Virus record (IMG/VR): IMGVR_UViG_2061766007_001501
DNA from: an uncultured virus (IMG/VR IMGVR_UViG_2061766007_001501)
Lineage: Duplodnaviria > Heunggongvirae > Uroviricota > Caudoviricetes
DNA: 20,000 nt
Reading direction: 5' to 3' (one strand)
In this document: piece after piece, positions 3,976 to 14,923 of the stretch
Layout: the number at the start of each line of letters is the position of its first letter
Numbering within the stretch: position 1 is the first letter of the stretch
The notes under the pieces: generated by a model
The model's input: the letters and a program-made list of their open reading frames with translations, nothing else
What the model was told of the DNA's origin: nothing
Database searches by the model: none
Program-made: the position numbers and the translations under genes

Positions 3976-4193
3976 CGGATCTGTTTGCCATTGAGCAGAT
4001 TCCTGTCATTCTGCTGAATCTGCCAACGCACATTCGCGGGTTCTGCTGTCTCGGTTCGGATTTCGAGCCATGCATTATTCTGAACGCCCGTCTGCCACAG
4101 GAGCAGCGCGTCCGCGCCTATCTGCATGAACTGGAACATATCCGTAAAGGAGAACTCTATGACGCAGGATACATTGAGTACGCGGAAGCGTAA
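3972..4193 (+). CDS. ImmA/IrrE-like HExxH metallopeptidase (short anti-repressor type)
   Basis: IILNARL...RAYLHELEHI motif; ATGA-coupled to the repressor. Confidence 0.75.
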   Translation: MTDLFAIEQIPVILLNLPTHIRGFCCLGSDFEPCIILNARLPQEQRVRAYLHELEHIRKGELYDAGYIEYAEA

Positions 4194-5247
4194 AACCCGT
4201 TCGCGCCCGAACGGAACCGGCACGGCCATCAAACGCGGAAAGACCTGGACCGCCATTGTCGTCGTGGACTGGAAAGCGTCCAAAGACCTCACCCATAAAA
4301 TTCCTGTCTACCGCACCAAGGGCGGCTTTCCCACGAAAAAGGACGCACTCAATTACTGCCCGATTCTCCTGCACGGCCCGGAGAAGAAAAAGCAAATCCG
4401 CCTGCACGAACTCTACGATCTCTGGGAAGCGGCCTACGCCCCGCGTATCGTCCCGTCCACCATGGACTGCTATAAGTATGCTTATAAGCATTTTGCAAAC
4501 CTGCATCACCGTTTTATCAGCAACATATCTGCCACTGATCTGCAAGCCTGTATGGACGCATGTCCGTCCGGGAAGCGAACGCATCAGAATATGAAGTGCG
4601 TAGCAGGTCTGCTCTGGGCGTATGCGATAGATTCAAATTATATCACTCAGGACGTGACGGAACATTTATATATAGGAAAGGGTCAGACCGTCCAACGCGA
4701 TCCGCTCACCGAAAAGGAAGTGGAAGCAATTCGCCGCGCCATCGGGAAAATCCGTTACGCGGAATATGTTTACTGTCTCTGCTATCTCGGATTCCGTCCG
4801 ACAGAGTTTCTTTCCTTAAAAAAAGAGCATTATAAAATCATCGACGGGATTGAGTGCCTGATCAACGGCAGCAAGACGGAAGCCGGAANNNNNNNNNNNN
4901 NNNNNNNNNNNNNNNNNNNNNNNNNNNNNNNTCCAGGAACGGATCTAATCTTCCCACAGTATGTTTTCAGCCGGAAAAAGGGCGAGCCGTTCAAATGCTT
5001 CAAGGAAATGCACCACAGTTATTTCCGGGAAGATGTTTTCAAACCGATGATGCAGCAGCTGGGCATTGCGGAAGGGAAAGTCCCATACGCCACCCGTCAC
5101 ACATATTCAGATAAACTCAAGCGCGCGGACGGCGACGATAAAACCAAAGCCGGCCTTATGGGTCATACAGACTACGCTTTCACAAAATCCCATTACCAGT
5201 CCACCGACATGGACGACCTCCTGGATGTGGCGACAAGCATAGAGTAA
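4159..5247 (+). CDS. int: tyrosine integrase
   Basis: N-terminal arm-binding RSRPNGTGT; catalytic GFRPTE, SKT, YATRHTY, LMGHTD, HY motifs. Confidence 0.93.
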   Translation: MTQDTLSTRKRKTRSRPNGTGTAIKRGKTWTAIVVVDWKASKDLTHKIPVYRTKGGFPTKKDALNYCPILLHGPEKKKQIRLHELYDLWEAAYAPRIVPSTMDCYKYAYKHFANLHHRFISNISATDLQACMDACPSGKRTHQNMKCVAGLLWAYAIDSNYITQDVTEHLYIGKGQTVQRDPLTEKEVEAIRRAIGKIRYAEYVYCLCYLGFRPTEFLSLKKEHYKIIDGIECLINGSKTEAGXXXXXXXXXXXXXXXPGTDLIFPQYVFSRKKGEPFKCFKEMHHSYFREDVFKPMMQQLGIAEGKVPYATRHTYSDKLKRADGDDKTKAGLMGHTDYAFTKSHYQSTDMDDLLDVATSIE

Positions 5248-5361: not shown

Positions 5362-6482
5362 ATGTTGCGCCACAAAGGTTACAAATACAGGATTTATCCA
5401 TCCAAGGAACAAGAACAAAAAATTAAATCATTCTTTGGATGCTGTAGATTTGTATATAATAATTCCCTGTTATTTAACAAAGAAACATATTCATCAGATC
5501 ATCGTTATGTTTCTTCGTTTGAAAACATGAGACGAATCACAAAGCTCAAAACAGATCCGCAATNNNNNNNNNNNNNNNNNNNNNNNNNNNAGCAATAAAA
5601 GACCTCGACAGGGCATATCAGGCATTTTTAAAAAACGGAGTGGGGCTGCCACAATATCGAAGCAAGAGAAAACATGCGCAGTCATATAGAACAGTAAACA
5701 ACTATAACGTTGTGCGTTTTGAATCGGGAAAAATTCGAATCCCGAAACTCGGATTGATAAAAATAAAAAAATCACGTGAAATACAAGGAAGAATTATAAA
5801 TGCAACAATATCATGTACTGCATCAGGGAAATATTTTGTTTCTCTTTGCGTAGAAGAAGAAACGGTTATAAAGCCGAACGGCGGTGGCGTCGTTGGCATA
5901 GATGTTGGAATTAAAAATTTTTATACAGATAGCNNNNNNNNNNNNNNNCCAAAGGTATTTGAAAAAAATAAGAAACGACTTGCAAAAGAAAACAAACGAC
6001 TTTCACGAAAGGAAAAAGATTCAAATAATTGGAACAAACAGCGCATAAAACTTGCAAAAGCATACGATAAGGTAGCAAATCAAAGGGCTGATTTTCTGCA
6101 TAAAGAATCTTCCAAATTAGTTATCGAAAACCAAGTAATTGCTTTGGAAGATTTAAACGTTTGTGGAATGGCAAAGAACAGAAAACTTGCAAAAGCGATT
6201 TTTGATGCTTCATGGGGTTCTTTTGTGAAATTACTTGAATATAAATCATTTGAGCACGGCACGAAAATTGTCCGAGTCCCAAGATTCTTTGCTTCCAGCC
6301 AGATTTGTTCATCCTGTGGTGAAAAAAATTCATTGGTTAAAGATCTTTCTGTCAGGAAGTGGACCTGCCCGAATTGCGGGGCTGCCCATGACCGGGATCA
6401 CANNNNNNNNNNNNNNNNNNNATTATGCGTTGATGACAACTTAGTTATAATAACAAGTACCGTAGGGCATACGGGAACTTAA
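5362..6482 (+). CDS. tnpB: TnpB RNA-guided endonuclease (IS200/IS605 family), joined across an N gap
   Basis: KGYKYRIYP...FGCCRFVYN N-terminus; AIKDLDRAYQAF after the gap; RuvC GIDVG, ALEDL, HDRD; CSSC/CPNC Zn finger; AT-rich relative to flanks; no tnpA. Confidence 0.93.
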
Positions 6483-6632: not shown

Positions 6633-6680
6633 CTTGAATGGGGTTCAAGAGGCCGGAGGTTCGAATCCTCTCACCCAGAC
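6633..6680 (+). other. att core (probably attP): 3' part of tRNA-Pro(GGG)
   Basis: CTTGA-ATGGGGT-TCAAG anticodon arm, GGAGG-TTCGAAT-CCTCT T arm, CACCCAG-A acceptor 3' strand; no D arm or 5' strand upstream; downstream of integrase. Confidence 0.85.
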
Positions 6681-6688
6681 GCCGAAAA

Positions 6689-6841: not shown

Positions 6842-7033
6842 TTAATCATACAGTTTCCACCATTTTACTTTCAGCACGTCAGCGATCTTCTTCGCCATCT
6901 CAACCGGCAGTTTTCGGCTGCCCGTTTCGTACCGGCTGATGCTCGCTTCGGTCGTTCCGACACGTTCCGCCAGTTCCGCAACGGTCAGATTCCTTTTCTT
7001 CCTGATCTCTTTCAGATATACCGGATACCCCAA
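6842..7033 (-). CDS. XRE-family HTH regulator divergent from the RNA array
   Basis: LKEIRKKRNLTVAELAERVGTTEASISRYETGSRKLP; AGGAG RBS before a TTG start. Confidence 0.9.
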   Translation of the reverse strand: MGYPVYLKEIRKKRNLTVAELAERVGTTEASISRYETGSRKLPVEMAKKIADVLKVKWWKLYD

Positions 7034-7091: not shown

Positions 7092-7111
7092 GAAATATTT
7101 CCAATTTGGTA

Positions 7112-7141
7112 TTGACTATTGCTCACGCACTGTGTTAGGAT
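7112..7141 (+). promoter_or_regulatory. promoter of the ncRNA array
   Basis: TTGACT-18 bp-TAGGAT with extended TG; predicted +1 near 7148 coincides with the 5' end of the first RNA. Confidence 0.65.
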
Positions 7142-7147
7142 GTTCTC

Positions 7148-7289
7148 GCAAACAGCATTGCAGAGGTCGGATACTTCGAGAGGAACTTTGTGTCACAGGT
7201 TCGAGTCCTGTCCCCTCGACACCGAGGGGTAGCTCAGTTGGTAGAGCAAAAGTAAAAAGCCCGGTCTCGATTCTTATCTGTTTGCACCA
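7148..7289 (+). ncRNA. Y RNA-like RNA 1 (YrlA-type, permuted tRNA-like domain)
   Basis: Terminal stem GCAAACAG/CTGTTTGC + ACCA; T arm 7195-7211 precedes a loop-closed acceptor stem CCCCTCG-ACAC-CGAGGGG, then D arm TAGCTCAGTTGGTAGAGC; upstream of Ro60. Confidence 0.82.
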
Positions 7290-7292
7290 CAT

Positions 7293-7379
7293 GGGATGAT
7301 ATACCGTAAGTGGTAGCGGGGCAGACTGTAAATCTGCTGTCATTCGGCTCGGGTGGTTCGACTCCATCTCATCCCACCA
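7293..7379 (+). tRNA. tRNA-Tyr(GTA)
   Basis: GGGATGA/TCATCCC-ACCA acceptor, GCAGA-CTGTAAA-TCTGC anticodon arm, long variable arm, TTCGA loop. Confidence 0.95.
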
Positions 7380-7593
7380 GCTGCACAATTGCAGCAAACC
7401 ACTTTCATATGGCATTCCGGAAAGACGGAAAAGCATGAAACCGAGTGTCTGGTGCCGAGCTACTCATCGCCAGCCGAAACGCACAAAGACTTGCGCCCAG
7501 AGTAGGGGTATGTGAACGGTAACCTGGATGGGCCGCCGACACGGAGAAGCAAGTTGCCGGGTTTACATAACTGCGGTTTACCGGCAATCACAT

Positions 7594-7950
7594 GGGGGTG
7601 AAATGGTTTCGACAGGTTGTGAAGTATGCTGAGATCACGGGCATGATACCGCCTTATGGGTCAAGCAAAAGAACTGACGAAGATAATACTTACGGCGAAC
7701 TGAAAGCCGCCTGATCGCGGCATCGCTCCAAAACGACGGACCTGCCGGTCGGTAACCGTATGAGGATCAGAGATAGACTGGAATGACTCACCCCGGTTCT
7801 CCTGCTCACCGGCGTTAACAAAAGAGCGGGTGGTGGACATGAGGGACACTCCTTCCCTATGAGCGTCATCTCACTAATCTGACTATCGTGTAAGAAGTTT
7901 CAGTATCGGTCGCAATTTGGACACGGGTTCGACTCCCGCCATCTCCACCA
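7594..7950 (+). ncRNA. ssrA: tmRNA, tag (A)DEDNTYGELKAA* at 7676-7714
   Basis: 5' GGGGGTGAAATGGTTTCGACAGG, 3' GGGTTCGACTCCCGCCATCTCCACCA with G3:U70; internal tag ORF ending AA-stop; 357 nt. Confidence 0.95.
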
Positions 7951-7951
7951 T

Positions 7952-8027
7952 GGGGCATTAACTCAATGGTAGTAGTGTCTGCTTTGCAAGCAGAAGGTTG
8001 CAGGTTCAAATCCTGTATGCTCCACCA
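7952..8027 (+). tRNA. tRNA-Ala(TGC)
   Basis: GGGGCAT/ATGCTCC-ACCA with G3:U70; TCTGC-TTTGCAA-GCAGA anticodon arm. Confidence 0.92.
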
Positions 8028-8195
8028 GTACTCCGTGGACACAGGTTGTATGTCGTACAACCTGGACAGCCGGATGGGTTTTAGGAAGTCCTGAACGAAG
8101 CCCCACAAGCGTCACGGCGTTGACTGCGGTCCGGCAGACTGACCAAGAGGACGTCGAAAGGAGATCTGCTGGCAGCCGGGAAAGACCGGCAACAT

Positions 8196-8269
8196 GTTCT
8201 CGTAGCCCAACCGGCAGAGGCAACTGACTTAAGATCAGCCAAGTGAGAGTTCGAATCTCTCCGAGAATA
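8196..8269 (+). tRNA. tRNA-Leu(TAA), short variable loop, no encoded CCA
   Basis: GTTCTCG/CGAGAAT-A acceptor; CTGA-CTTAAGA-TCAG anticodon arm; GAGAG-TTCGAAT-CTCTC T arm. Confidence 0.85.
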
Positions 8270-8271
8270 CT

Positions 8272-8457
8272 TGACGCAGCATTGCAGGATACGGTTCCTT
8301 CGCCTGCTAAGCGAGAGGTCGGGAGTTCGAGTCTCCCTCGCACAGACGTCTTTGTGCAACACCTCGAAAACACTCAGAGGGTCGCAGCATAATAGTCGTG
8401 CGGTAGCTCAGTTGGCAAGAGCGCTAACGTTACCGTTTCCGCTTCTTATCTGCGTCA
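8272..8457 (+). ncRNA. Y RNA-like RNA 2 (permuted tRNA domain including a GCU anticodon arm)
   Basis: TGACGCAG/CTGCGTCA terminal stem; shared CATTGCAG and CGCTTCTTAT motifs; order anticodon arm - T arm - acceptor 3' - spacer - acceptor 5' - D arm. Confidence 0.8.
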
Positions 8458-8463
8458 TACCGT

Positions 8464-8537
8464 AGGAGCATAGTTTAGTGGTAGAACGACTGACTCCAAA
8501 TCAGTAAGTCTCTGTCCGATTCGGAGTGCTCCTGCCA
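8464..8537 (+). tRNA. tRNA-Trp(CCA)
   Basis: AGGAGCA/TGCTCCT-GCCA acceptor; ACTGA-CTCCAAA-TCAGT anticodon arm; variant T loop TCCGATT. Confidence 0.9.
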
Positions 8538-8538
8538 A

Positions 8539-8637
8539 GGGTCGCCTTTCCGCTGTGGGTGATCTCCACGGATCACGGAATGAAGATGCCTGACTGCAGC
8601 GGCATCTCCGAGGATCAGGCGTTAAGGTGCCCTGCCA
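8539..8637 (+). ncRNA. unknown CCA-terminated structured RNA
   Basis: AGGG(T)CGCCTT/AAGGTGCCCT + GCCA terminal stem; internal hairpins; fills the space between tRNA-Trp and Y-like RNA 3. Confidence 0.55.
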
Positions 8638-8745
8638 AAGGGCGGCATTGCAGAAAACGGATACTTCGATCTGCTAAATCGACTACACAGACCTCCAATC
8701 CAGGTCTGCCCGTTACCCGTTTTCGATTCTCATCCGCTCTTACCA
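8638..8745 (+). ncRNA. Y RNA-like RNA 3 (no T/D arms; GCU anticodon-like hairpin)
   Basis: AAGGGCGG/CCGCTCTT + ACCA; CATTGCAG-AAAACGG...CCGTTTT-CGATTCTCAT; TCGAT-CTGCTAA-ATCGA hairpin. Confidence 0.75.
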
Positions 8746-8875
8746 TGTGCGGTAGTAGAAGAGGAAGAACGTCATGGAGTAGTCAATAGTTCTCTGATGA
8801 TCTGTCGAAGCGCAAGACAGTAGGAGTGAGACGGAACATGAAAATACTGGATTCGATTTCCAGTCCGCACAACCA
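8746..8875 (+). ncRNA. tRNA-like RNA with a 60-nt insert in place of the anticodon loop
   Basis: TGTGCGG/CCGCACA-ACCA acceptor; TCATG/CATGA anticodon stem enclosing 8777-8836; ACTGGA-TTCGATT-TCCAGT T arm. Confidence 0.65.
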
Positions 8876-8878
8876 ATG

Positions 8879-8966
8879 AGAGCATTTGCGTATTGCAATG
8901 GCCGGATGCATCGAACTTTTAATTCGCTTACGCTTACCCGACCATGCCACTCATCGCGGATGCTCT
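8879..8966 (+). ncRNA. Y RNA-like RNA 4 (divergent; UUU anticodon-like hairpin)
   Basis: 12-bp terminal stem AGAGCATTTGCG/CGCGGATGCTCT; TATTGCAA and CTCAT motifs; inner stem TGGCCGG/CCGACCA; CGAA-CTTTTAA-TTCG hairpin; followed by a T-rich tract. Confidence 0.65.
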
Positions 8967-9049
8967 TTATTTTTACATGAATGGATGTGAAAATTTTGAA
9001 TGTCTTTCAGCTTGTACTCGATAATTATCAAGCAGAAAGGAGTACATAA

Positions 9050-9784
9050 ATGGACGATAAGATCCGTTCAGCTTTGTACATCCACCATTATGCTGTTGCA
9101 AAAGATTATGACGCCATAATGACTGTGCTGGTAGGCAGTCAGAACTATGGGTTAGGCACAGAAACAAGCGATTTTGACACGTTCACCTTTGTTCTTCCGT
9201 CCCTGCGGGACATATCTGTGCTGCGTGATCCGATCAGCACCACACGAGAAGATGATTTGGGGCATATCAATATCAAGGATATACGTCTTGCTCTGAATCT
9301 CTTAAAAAAGACCTCCCCGAACAGCGTGGAGTGCTTTGCTTCCAAAAGCAGGATAGTCGATGCAAAATATGCCGATCTTCTGTCCACTGTATTTGACAGC
9401 CCGTATGCTTTGCGCTGTGACACAAACCATATGATGATGGCTATCGGCGGTATGGCTCATCAGTTGTCGAAACGAAACATGAATCCAGGCAAACGGTTAT
9501 CTCATATTCTTCGCATGCACTGCATGGTTCACAGGTATTTTGATGTTAACGCAGATATACTTTCCATGACAGAAGAAGAGCAGCAACTGGCGCTAAAGGC
9601 AAAACGAGATCCGGAAAATCAAAAATGGGAGAAACTGATTGAGGAATATGCCGCAATCGTAAATGAGGAAGTCCGAAATGTAGATATGCATTATTTCGAT
9701 GCTCACGCAGAACTGGCGAAAGATATCATTTGCGATATACAGGAAAATTTGATTGAAAGAAAACTGACTATTCACGAATATTAA
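9050..9784 (+). CDS. Pol-beta superfamily nucleotidyltransferase (RlaP/Nuc-transf-like)
   Basis: VLVGSQNYGLGTETSDFD = GS..YG....SDxD motif; LLKKTSPNSVE resembles the RlaP K-x-NPN-x-E motif; AAGGAG RBS. Confidence 0.8.
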   Translation: MDDKIRSALYIHHYAVAKDYDAIMTVLVGSQNYGLGTETSDFDTFTFVLPSLRDISVLRDPISTTREDDLGHINIKDIRLALNLLKKTSPNSVECFASKSRIVDAKYADLLSTVFDSPYALRCDTNHMMMAIGGMAHQLSKRNMNPGKRLSHILRMHCMVHRYFDVNADILSMTEEEQQLALKAKRDPENQKWEKLIEEYAAIVNEEVRNVDMHYFDAHAELAKDIICDIQENLIERKLTIHEY

Positions 9785-9797
9785 GGAGGAAACCATT

Positions 9798-11213
9798 ATG
9801 GCAAAATTCAATTCAACCGCGTCAACACGAACCGTAAACTACGAAGGGCACTCCGCATATGCCATGCAGGACAAGACAAAGTTGATCACCCAGGTGCTTT
9901 GTTCATTCTTTAATGAGGCAAGGTTCTATCAGCCAAACGACAAGCCTATGATCGAAACGATGAAGTCCGTCATCAAACAGGACCCGCAGTTCGTCTCCAA
10001 CCTGGCCGTCTTTGCCCGCCGTGAGTTCAACATGCGTTCCGTGTCACACGTTCTGACCTGTTTCCTGGCGAACGTCAACGAAGGCAAACCGTACGTCCGG
10101 GACACCGTGCGCGGTGTCGTGCTCCGTGGCGACGACGCCACCGAGATCCTGTCCTTTTATCTGTCTGAGTTCGGAAAGCCGATTCCGAACAGCCTGCGCC
10201 GCGCCCTGAAAGACGTGTTTGCCACCTTCGATGCCTACACCCTTGCCAAGTACAAGGGCGAAGGTCATACGGTCAAAATGCGCGATCTGCTGCGGATCTG
10301 CCGTCCCCATCCAGAAACGGACGAGCAGTCCGTCCTGTGGAAGCAGNNNNNNNNNNNNNNNNNNNNNNNNNNNNNNNNNNNNNNNNNNNNNNNNNNNCCC
10401 ATGGCAACAACAAGGAAACTTGGGAGAAGCTGATCAACTCCGGACGCTGTGGCTATATGGGACTTCTCCGGAACCTTCGGAATATCATCAATGCAAATCC
10501 GTCCAACTTGGATAATGTGCTGGAGAAAATCTCCGACCCTGAAGCCGTAAAGCATTCCCGCCAGCTCCCGTTCCGTTTCCTGTCCGCTTATAAGACCCTT
10601 CCCGCCAACGCTGGCAAAAAGGTCACGGATGCACTGGAAAAGGCTGTAGAGTCTGCCTGTGAGAACGTTCCGAAACTGCCAGGGCGGACCGTGATTGCTG
10701 TGGACGTTTCCGGTTCCATGTCCAGCAATGTGAGCGCCAAATCTGATGTGCGCTGCTGTGAGATCGGTATGATGCTTGGCGTAATCGCCAACCGGATCTG
10801 TGAGGATGATATCTTCTATGTCTTTAATGGTGCCATCGAGCAGAAGCAGATCCCATCCGCTGGTATCCTGTACTCAACCGTGCATGAAGCCATGGCATAC
10901 GGCGGGACGGATATGAACCTGCCGTTTAAGAAGATGATGGAAGACAAGATTCAGTGCGACCGGGTTATTGTGATCTCCGATAATGAGTGTAACGGCGGTT
11001 GGAGGGGTAACACGGTTCAGNNNNNNNNNNAAAGAATCCGGGAATAACATCTGGGTCCATGCTATCGACCTGATGGGATACGGCACGCAGCAGTTTGCAG
11101 GTCCGAAAACGAACATCATCGCCGGATGGTCCGAGAAGGTCTTTGATTTCATCCTCTTGGCGGAACAGGGCGAAGGAAACCTGGAAAAGACGATTGCGGA
11201 ATATAAGTGGTAA
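9798..11213 (+). CDS. rsr: Ro60/TROVE-domain RNA-binding protein with C-terminal vWA (joined across two N gaps)
   Basis: TVNYEGHSAY, LAVFARREFNMRS, LAKYK, YMGLLRNLRNI, SRQLPFRFLSAY TROVE motifs; vWA MIDAS VDVSGSM, GGTD, ISDNE. Confidence 0.93.
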
Positions 11214-14016: not shown

Positions 14017-14101
14017 TGATATAATTTGTTATGTAGTGGATAGGGTCGCTCCCGATAAGCCGTAAGCCTTAACGGTTTCCACTACGCAAACCAATTAAGG
14101 C
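14017..14101 (+). promoter_or_regulatory. extended -10 promoter and structured 5' leader of the HNH gene
   Basis: TGaTATAAT 14017-14025; GTAGTGGA/TCCACTAC stem enclosing two hairpins; GCCTTAA can pair with TTAAGGC 14095-14101. Confidence 0.55.
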
Positions 14102-14128
14102 AACATCGCAAAGGCAGGTGTGTTTTTT

Positions 14129-14923
14129 ATGGAAAAATGGAAAGATATTATTGGCTATGAAGGTTTATATCAAGTAAGCAATTATGGGAATATAAAAAGT
14201 CTTTCGTTTGGGCCGAAGAATATAAATATCAATAGGTCTGAGCGATTATTGCACATTTCTTACTCGTCAATTGGATATGCTCATGTGCAACTATATAAAA
14301 ATGGAAAAGCAAAAACCATGAACGTACACCGACTTGTCGCAACTGCATTTGTTGACAATCCATTTAACAAACCAGAAATCAACCATATTGATGCCAACAG
14401 ATCCAATAATCATGCAGATAATTTGGAATGGGTCACACACTCAGAAAATCTTCGGCATGCAGTTAAGCTTGGCAACAGAATTCCTCCGTCTGTAAAAAAT
14501 AATAAAAAGGGAAAATCAATTTCATCATTACACATTCTTCAATACTCATTAAACGGAACATTTATAAAAGAATGGAACTGTATATCTGATATATCTTTTT
14601 CCACTGGGATTCCATATAGTGGTATTAATTCGTGCGTTAATGGATTGAATAAATCATCCGGTGGCTATATGTGGATTAGACATATGCCCGGATGTGAAAT
14701 ACATGAAGAAATTGAGCCAAGAATATCCTTGACAGGAAAGGCCGAAAGATCATATAGAAAAATTGCACAATACAATCTACATGGCGATTTGATAAAAATA
14801 TGGAATGGACATAAAGAAATAGAAACGAACAATCGCTTTGGGAAAAGATCCATTGGCAATATATATAAATGCATAAACGGAAAACGAAAAACAGCCAACG
14901 GATTTATTTGGAAATATATTTAA
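14129..14923 (+). CDS. NUMOD4-HNH homing endonuclease with NUMOD1-like repeats
   Basis: MEKWKDIIGYEGLYQVSNYG (NUMOD4); VHRLVA...INHIDANRSNNHADNLEWVTHSEN (HNH); two QY...G..IK.W...GG/NG.W repeats; AT-rich and opposite to the surrounding operon. Confidence 0.92.
   Translation: MEKWKDIIGYEGLYQVSNYGNIKSLSFGPKNININRSERLLHISYSSIGYAHVQLYKNGKAKTMNVHRLVATAFVDNPFNKPEINHIDANRSNNHADNLEWVTHSENLRHAVKLGNRIPPSVKNNKKGKSISSLHILQYSLNGTFIKEWNCISDISFSTGIPYSGINSCVNGLNKSSGGYMWIRHMPGCEIHEEIEPRISLTGKAERSYRKIAQYNLHGDLIKIWNGHKEIETNNRFGKRSIGNIYKCINGKRKTANGFIWKYI

Follow-up and report, generated by a model that had tools for sequence, protein, structure and literature searches.

Among the RNAs described so far, the closest to those studied here is YrlA (RF02553), a bacterial Y RNA of Salmonella Typhimurium, Mycobacterium smegmatis and phages, whose gene lies beside a Ro60/TROVE gene. 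Beyond its closing stem and internal loop comes a tRNA-like domain in circular permutation, made up of T arm, sealed acceptor stem and D arm; upstream of the T arm a 'V' stem-loop may be present, with a conserved YUAY before it. This V stem-loop, starting after the conserved YUAY, has been equated with the variable arm of tRNA (Chen et al. 2014, PMC4201824), and according to a structure preprint YrlA "lacks the anticodon loop" (10.1101/312249). For another Ro60-bound Y RNA, Yrn1 of Deinococcus radiodurans, a drawing is possible in which 5 base pairs (bp) and a loop of 6 nucleotides (nt) form a potential 'anticodon arm' (PMC4201824). Here we report on a stretch of 20,000 nt from an uncultured virus of the Caudoviricetes (IMG/VR record IMGVR_UViG_2061766007_001501), hereafter the window, where a Ro60/TROVE gene is likewise preceded by Y-like RNAs. 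A first-pass annotation of the window had proposed that three of these RNAs display anticodon stem-loop mimics as candidate decoys of anticodon nucleases. Our analysis confirms the structural observation and finds it in many loci besides the window: some Y RNAs of the YrlA type have a true anticodon arm that is evolving. The hairpin in question is the published V stem-loop of YrlA, which has not previously been read as an anticodon arm.

The four Y-like RNAs are located at 7148-7285, 8272-8457, 8638-8741 and about 8878-8967, all on the + strand and upstream of the rlaP and Ro60 genes. They share a common module, namely an outer stem of at least 8 bp, an internal loop in which CAUUGCAG faces a GAUUCUUAUC-like sequence, and an inner stem. 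The conserved 5' strand of the closing stem is GCGGCAUUGCAG, which resembles, without fitting it, the published motif GNCGAAN0-1G thought to bind Ro60 (Chen et al. 2014, PMC4201824). Three of the four then carry a hairpin of the same kind, which begins 0-1 nt past the conserved GG(A/U)UNC that ends the inner stem; the GGUUAC found here ends in YUAY as in YrlA. In RNA2 it is UUCGC-CUGCUAA-GCGAG (8299-8315, loop 8304-8310, triplet GCU at 8306-8308), in RNA3 UCGAU-CUGCUAA-AUCGA (8666-8682) and in RNA4 CGAA-CUUUUAA-UUCG (8912-8926), all on the + strand. Thus the three 7-nt CU-NNN-AA loops, their equivalent position and the sharing of one loop by RNA2 and RNA3 on different stems are as the first-pass annotation had them. 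All three have the features of an anticodon arm, namely a 5-bp stem (4 bp in RNA4) and a 7-nt loop with C32, U33, a purine (A) at position 37 and A38.

RNA2, a complete circularly permuted tRNA mimic, is the fullest of the four. Its outer stem pairs 8272-8279 with 8450-8457 and its inner stem 8287-8295 with 8432-8440, both taken from the alignment to R1, a covariance model described below (108.1 bits, E 4e-27). The anticodon-arm mimic is followed by a 5-nt variable loop, AGGUC (8316-8320), a T arm (8321-8337), a closed acceptor hairpin with a 54-nt insert inside (8338-8343 with 8398-8403), and a D arm (8406-8422) preceded by U8-A9, from which a 9-nt linker leads back to the inner stem. The RNA had been taken to end near 8370, which is wrong. 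Since it runs to 8457 with arm, variable loop, T arm, acceptor and D arm, RNA2 is a whole tRNA body in circular permutation. Its opening lies between positions 26 and 27, and the Ro60-type stem is joined there through short single-stranded linkers. On 8283-8345 the Rfam tRNA model recognises anticodon arm, variable loop and T arm, but finds no D arm in the expected order, and its score of 22.8 bits falls short of the threshold of 29. ARAGORN calls none of the four RNAs in the window as a tRNA; the acceptor stem is a closed hairpin with no free ends. RNA1 is a canonical YrlA-type RNA with closing stems, T arm, closed acceptor hairpin and D arm, and has about 20 degenerate nt instead of the anticodon-arm hairpin. 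It matches Rfam YrlA over 7175-7274 at 46.9 bits (E 8.9e-9, gathering score 69) and R1 at 79.1 bits. The permuted tRNA-like domain is thus present in RNA1, in RNA2 and in our alignment of 22 relatives. RNA3 and RNA4 have neither T nor D arm and consist of little beyond the Ro60-type stem and the anticodon arm. RNA3, of a short type, matches R1 at 36.6 bits (E 1e-8) and has in addition a second hairpin at 8688-8708 with the loop CCAAUCC. RNA4, of a minimal type with closing stems and arm mimic alone, matches R1 weakly (12.9 bits, E 0.013, filters off); in its homologue at L002:212-291 the hairpin is kept and the inner stem shows a compensatory change from G-C to A-U. The second hairpin of the short RNAs is itself recurrent, since in the window and at L015:866-968, L087:5433-5531 and L091:326-428 it has a 7-nt loop CCAAYCC on a stem of 6-7 bp that varies by locus.

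The minimum free energy (MFE) folds of RNA2, RNA3 and RNA4 all include the hairpin. Full-length RNA2 folds at -69.4 kcal/mol (z -3.1, equalled by 1 of 200 shuffles), RNA3 at -31.4 kcal/mol (z -3.5) and RNA4 at -29.8 kcal/mol (z -3.8), the last two equalled by none of 200. On both strands of the window there are eight CU-NNN-AA hairpins of at least 4 bp, against 3.0 ± 1.8 (maximum 9) in 200 first-order shuffles; six of the eight lie on the + strand within 7326-8922, two of these being true tRNAs and one a by-product at the 3' end of tRNA-Trp, and the window-wide count is by itself not compelling. The hairpins are judged real because of homology: the same hairpin stands at the same place in relatives, which rules out a chance origin. 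For example, the loop CUGCUAA of RNA2 also occurs in relatives L012, L033, L085 and L091/L092.

Relatives were collected through the Ro60 gene. Single-protein searches with the RlaP of the window and with the C-terminal half of Ro60 gave only three viral loci with little upstream DNA. A 34-homologue Ro60 alignment was then used, and gave 80 loci from species-representative genomes and 67 from viral contigs. Of 8000 candidate proteins that were scored, 4169 are Ro60 homologues with E <= 1e-20. The genome loci come from rumen and gut Clostridia, with 42-69% Ro60 identity, and from Bacteroidota and others near 33%. For the census, 148 related Ro60 loci and the window made up 149 sources. A motif scan that was blind to the sequence after the inner stem showed that modules are numerous directly upstream of Ro60. 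From these, 22 long modules chosen for having the hairpin were aligned with MAFFT (alignment A2). In A2, 95.1% of the cells pair under the given structure against 72.9% in shuffles, 29 of the 37 pairs change on both sides, which none of 500 shuffles reaches, and sliding the partner lowers pairing to 35-52%. Double-sided changes occur in seven of the eight pairs of the outer stem and eight of the nine of the inner stem. The pairing of the hairpin helix itself is partly by construction, because the 22 members were picked for it; its closing pair nonetheless covaries (CG 13, UA 5, AU 3 and GC 1), and in the distant set there is covariation at stem pairs 30-40 and 31-39.

The covariance model R1, built from these 22 hairpin-bearing relatives, gives 198 matches in 62 sources (the window and 61 close loci) and 164 in 87 distant loci. 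Almost all of them are on the Ro60 strand beside the gene, typically two to six per locus. With identical and partial rows removed, the set comprises 250 unique full-length RNAs, of which 124 come from close and 126 from distant loci. Among them, 82 (46 close, 36 distant) have a hairpin at this place with a 5-bp stem (at least 4 paired) and a 7-nt loop; 62 (34 close, 28 distant), spread over 53 of the 149 sources, have a loop with Y32, U33 and R37; and 44 (27 close, 17 distant) have the loop ending A37-A38, shares which are descriptive only because R1 favours the hairpin-bearing RNAs from which it was built. The arm is found in Bacteroidota loci too. As the other 168 RNAs lack the hairpin and show a degenerate or different sequence at its place, like RNA1, the hairpin is a feature of one paralogue class and not of all Y-like RNAs. 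Among 38 short Y-like RNAs (40 rows minus one noise match and one true tRNA), a canonical anticodon-type loop appears in the MFE fold of 12, and CCGUUAA in two more; CUUUUAA occurs in six short RNAs on five different stems. Hence the expectation that homologues would keep CU-NNN-AA with a varying NNN holds within this defined subclass, 62 of 250 long and 12 of 38 short RNAs, and does not hold for the family at large. A frequent order of the locus, also seen in the window, is an arm-less RNA, an arm-bearing long RNA, a short RNA and then Ro60.

The hairpin is read as an anticodon arm rather than a variable arm because of its size (stem of 5 bp, loop of 7 nt), because 42 of the 49 hairpins in a first census have U33 and 44 of the 49 have A37, because a canonical 5-nt variable loop with G46 and C48 follows before the T arm, and because the Rfam tRNA model on the window and ARAGORN on the relatives assign it so. 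ARAGORN mis-calls several arm-bearing Y-like RNAs as tRNAs, with 11 such calls in the close loci, such as a 'tRNA-Thr' at L003:214-283 and a 'tRNA-Asn' at L094:5755-5822; annotation calls for caution here, as programs take some Y-like RNAs for tRNAs. The loops are also those of host tRNAs. In five genomes that carry related loci, the loop of the chromosomal tRNA-Lys(UUU) is CUUUUAA in all seven genes found; the loop of tRNA-Ser(GCU) is CUGCUAA in all four such carrier genomes where this tRNA was found. The Y-RNA loops CUUUUAA and CUGCUAA are therefore identical to host tRNA-Lys(UUU) and tRNA-Ser(GCU) loops, in agreement with the first-pass annotation. The further claim that no intact tRNA of the array has either anticodon stands for the window, where the tRNAs are Tyr (GUA), Ala (UGC), Leu (UAA) and Trp (CCA), and fails for related arrays, where true tRNA-Lys(UUU) and tRNA-Ser(GCU) are neighbours of such RNAs. 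At position 32, true tRNAs in or near the arrays have C 11, U 6 and A 1 for Lys and C 5, U 8 and G 1 for Ser(GCU), while C32 is present in nine of nine Y loops with the Lys triplet and seven of seven with the Ser triplet. The GCU (Ser) triplet is carried by a body with a short variable loop.

Among relatives, the triplet changes rapidly, whereas the stem and the frame of the loop are conserved. This is seen in the trio L091b, L015b and L090b, with triplets GCU, UUU and UCC, in which every pair differs at two of the three triplet positions and at only 5-7 of 133 positions outside the loop. In 38 pairs that are less than 30% diverged, differences amount to 46% in the triplet, 14% in the four frame positions and 24% in the rest. 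Column entropies, in bits, are 1.27 (triplet), 0.42 (frame), 0.49 (stem) and 0.65 (unpaired columns elsewhere). The 62 canonical loops carry UUU nine times, GCU and GUU seven times each, GAU six, GUC four and GGU three times; five further triplets occur twice and 16 once. Their wobble base (G 30, U 24, C 5, A 3) resembles that of real tRNAs. In addition, U36 (NNU triplets) is present in 42 of the 62 against 121 of 367 true tRNAs called by ARAGORN at the same loci, an excess with a Fisher odds ratio of 4.3 and p 4e-7 when relatedness is ignored.

Compared with published YrlA, therefore, the V hairpin here has the full anatomy of an anticodon arm and a hypervariable triplet, there are minimal forms (RNA3 and RNA4) that lack the tRNA body, and none of the four RNAs reaches the gathering score of an Rfam Y RNA model; RNA2, RNA3 and RNA4 have no Rfam YrlA match up to E 10. 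Yrn1 differs in its loop of 6 rather than 7 nt and in how its T and D elements are oriented, and its description claims no anticodon-loop signature. In the Y RNA papers searched, leaving aside one supplementary file of Chen et al. 2014 and that paper's figures, which may show such loops, we found no description of a 7-nt anticodon-type loop; the terms 'anticodon', 'V arm' and 'variable' are not found in the text supplements of that paper, all but this one file being covered.

As for function, we lean, at a little under an even chance, towards the reading that the Ro60-tethered Y RNAs serve as an anticodon-arm bait, most likely for anticodon nucleases, either as decoy or as sacrificial sensor. 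The tethering to Ro60 is suggested by gene adjacency and family resemblance. Ro60 would grip the closing stem and present the anticodon arm to a protein that reads anticodon loops, the likeliest readers being tRNA-cleaving anticodon nucleases from defence systems, toxin-antitoxin modules or bacteriocins. The arm could be a decoy in competition with host tRNA, or it could itself be cleaved and thereby signal the attack to the Ro60 machinery; in both cases the triplet would set the nuclease specificity that is covered. The neighbouring true tRNAs, tmRNA and RlaP may serve the same end, that translation is maintained under tRNA attack. Anticodon nucleases are favoured as the reader because arm-only RNAs persist, because the triplet acts like a specificity cassette, because the favoured triplets overlap known nuclease targets, and because true tRNAs, a tmRNA and, in the window, RlaP accompany the cassette in the prophage region for lysogeny or accessory genes.

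A known parallel is that of phage tRNA variants set against tRNA-cleaving defences, as in T5 against AriB. They are likewise borne by mobile elements, lie in tRNA arrays and involve the same favoured Lys UUU, Asn GUU and Thr UGU. The phage variants are functional and chargeable tRNAs which escape cleavage via altered loops or stems, whereas the Y RNAs here are most probably not chargeable, have host-like loops and are attached to a Ro60-type stem. Phage tRNAs are also said to neutralise retrons. PARIS AriB cleaves tRNA-Lys(UUU), Thr(UGU) and Asn(GUU), which have U36-A-A-U in common, and variants of phage T5 tRNAs escape it; viral tRNAs as possible competitors of AriB were considered by the same authors (PMC12409363). 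Changes of the anticodon loop are carried by phage tRNAs (PMC10264068), and RlaP is predicted to restore nucleotides removed by anticodon nucleases (PMC7824862). That YrlA's tRNA-like domain may competitively inhibit an anticodon nuclease has been suggested by Hughes et al. 2020 (PMC7790460). The first-pass interpretation is in this sense partly supported: its structural reading holds, and the decoy function is a reasonable proposal that was partly anticipated in print. A wider statement, that in many bacteria and prophages the particles of Ro60 and Y RNA act as programmable baits, displaying an anticodon arm with the triplet as a fast-evolving specificity cassette, is possible though rather doubtful. 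A conserved scaffold would then show a host-identical loop and absorb or sense nucleases aimed at Lys, Asn, Ser, Ile or Thr tRNAs. No partner of the tRNA-like domain of bacterial Y RNAs is named in PMC4201824 or PMC7790460. Programmable baits would, if true, be the first defined function of this domain, and would tie Ro60 biology to tRNA-targeting immunity and phage counter-measures. In any case an arm-displaying subclass, with host-identical loops, conserved frame and changing triplet, narrows the search for the partner to readers of anticodon loops, and makes the question of its role directly testable by simple assays.

Several points weigh against the bait reading. Salmonella YrlA is reportedly no substrate of the nuclease studied (PMC7790460). 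The function of Ro60 and its Y RNAs cannot generally depend on a hairpin that 168 of 250 relatives lack, and besides the bias of R1, the census counts are not phylogenetically independent. The excess of U36 may be just part of the conserved frame (entropy 0.77) or due to descent from a UUU ancestor. The contrast at position 32 between the tRNAs of the elements and the Y loops, strong in close loci, weakens over all loci; C32 across all triplets is present in 112 of 163 true array tRNAs and 50 of 62 Y loops, and because this difference is small we keep it only as a hint. Neither Pfam, on 85 neighbouring open reading frames (ORFs) of 10 loci, nor PADLOC, on 24 ORFs of the window, revealed an anticodon nuclease, an RNA ligase or a known defence gene beside the cassette. 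The former gave no RtcB, HEPN, PIN or Toprim nuclease and no PNPase, the ORFs being ordinary chromosomal genes or genes of lysogeny such as integrases, serine recombinases and repressors, and the latter gave just a homing endonuclease and weak helicase matches. RlaP was dropped as a constant partner of the cassette, as tblastn links it to only three other loci (L001, L002 and L041) among 159 searched. Pieces of the array are present at 90-99% identity in RNA-library contigs from four runs of four studies, for example 8305-8458 with two differences; DNA carry-over is possible, the contigs stem partly from relatives or from true tRNAs, and they give no evidence of expression or of RNA ends.

Two other explanations concern the origin of the hairpin and the fate of the long RNAs. 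It may be that the hairpin is a plain V stem-loop of YrlA, a structural spacer or equivalent of the variable arm derived from a tRNA ancestor, whose loop would play no part tied to an anticodon, its tRNA-like signature being a relic. The 168 relatives degenerate at the place fit this, as does the 5' strand UUCG that is kept even in hairpin-less RNAs. Against it, the frame positions 32, 33, 37 and 38 (entropy 0.42) differ by only 14-18%, compared with 24-32% for the rest of the RNA; the hairpin also persists, on five different stems, in minimal RNAs that lost the whole tRNA body. With 5 bp and 7 nt, and a 5-nt variable loop after it, it matches an anticodon arm better than it would a class-II variable arm, which it does not fit; both ARAGORN and the Rfam tRNA model assign it as an anticodon arm, and its loops are the same as host tRNA loops, so that we regard the spacer explanation as unlikely. 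Another thought is that RNAs of the RNA2 type are processed at the sealed acceptor stem, by RNase P and CCA addition, to give a two-piece tRNA that is chargeable, decodes and is held together by the Y stem. YrlA of M. smegmatis is indeed cleaved by RNase P and gains CCA (PMC4201824), and RNA2-type RNAs have all tRNA parts, the anticodon arm included. But their acceptor hairpins range from 6 to 9 or more bp with inserts of up to 54 nt, discriminator and CCA are not encoded, RNA3 and RNA4 have no body at all, and the Ser triplet sits on a body without a long variable arm, which together make a decoding tRNA very improbable.

The identity of the reader is a further matter. The arm could be a bait or tether for other proteins or RNAs that recognise anticodon arms, which it would bring to Ro60 or titrate: modification enzymes, including those for t6A37 and for the wobble base, synthetases, T-box leaders or the ribosome. 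The t6A37 machinery acts on tRNAs with U36-A37, so the excess of this combination (42 of 62) would suit its substrates, and RNA2-type RNAs present a whole L-shaped body. Most synthetases and T-box leaders would bind the arm-only short RNAs poorly, though, and a class-I body that bears a Ser triplet cannot pass for tRNA-Ser with the cognate synthetase. A decoy of T-box leaders was set aside because the arm is also shown by Bacteroidota loci, where T-box control is unexpected. Nor is rapid change of the triplet predicted by titration of a housekeeping enzyme, and we give these other readers only a small chance. Anticodon nucleases thus stay our preferred, tentative candidates for the reader of the arm.

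We now turn to the locus around these RNAs. The window holds a dense + strand RNA array between a helix-turn-helix (HTH) repressor-like gene (6842-7033, minus strand) and the RlaP and Ro60/TROVE gene pair, in which true tRNAs and a transfer-messenger RNA (tmRNA) (7293-8537) alternate with the Y-like RNAs. They are tRNA-Tyr (GUA) at 7293-7379, the tmRNA at 7594-7950, tRNA-Ala (UGC) at 7952-8027, tRNA-Leu (UAA) at 8196-8270 and tRNA-Trp (CCA) at 8464-8537, all on the + strand, called by ARAGORN and above the Rfam gathering score. The RlaP-family protein, an RNA-repair-associated Pol-beta nucleotidyltransferase, is encoded at 9050-9784 (+; Pfam PF10127, E 1e-7; PHROG nucleotidyltransferase) and Ro60/TROVE at 9798-11047 (+; Pfam TROVE, E 2e-13 and 6e-17; vWA_Ro60, E 2e-10). 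Ro60 reads as two ORFs because of a masked run of N near 10347-10397; the frameshift is only apparent, and uninterrupted homologues of 481 amino acids are present in relatives L002 and L003. The Ro60 gene of the window begins about 830 nt past the end of the last Y-like RNA, and in relatives the last Y-like RNA stops about 30 nt short of Ro60. Upstream of the array lie a tyrosine integrase (4126-5247, Pfam/PHROG), another HTH regulator and a TnpB/IS605 element, and downstream of Ro60 an HNH homing endonuclease is encoded; the cassette is of prophage type. The DNA of the window occurs in ruminant gut metagenomes, and a blastn search of 7100-9050 against 50,697 phage records gives 1410 records, each with at most 7% query coverage and similarity to tRNA genes only.

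A few minor observations were also made. The tmRNA is complete (Rfam 99.7 bits, tag peptide DEDNTYGELKAA) and abuts tRNA-Ala inside this prophage-type array; no tmRNA was found by ARAGORN in the other 51 close loci scanned. Some Ro60/Y-RNA cassettes, at L005, L086 and others, lie inside arrays of 13-14 true tRNAs. The spacers 7380-7593, 8028-8195 and 8538-8637 between the RNA genes have no match to known families. The region 8538-8640 folds with z -2.2, RNA-library contigs span 7437-7585 and 8535-8668, and processing signals or more small RNAs may lie in these spacers. In L001, at 400-560 and upstream of the RlaP homologue, there is a tRNA-like gene with a D-arm-like start, a T arm and an acceptor end, seemingly split by a long insert; ARAGORN calls no tRNA there, and it could be an intron-bearing tRNA or another mimic. 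An int-alpA RNA (Rfam 38.4 bits, gathering score 35.8) at 14033-14100 is located directly upstream of the HNH/NUMOD homing endonuclease gene at 14120-14923. The IS605-type TnpB at 5362-6482 (HTH_OrfB_IS605, OrfB_IS605 and Cas12f1-like TNB, with a run of N at 6403-6422) is followed at about 6640-6685 by an apparent 3' part of a tRNA, with T arm and acceptor strand, which, being next to the integrase, may be an attachment-site remnant.

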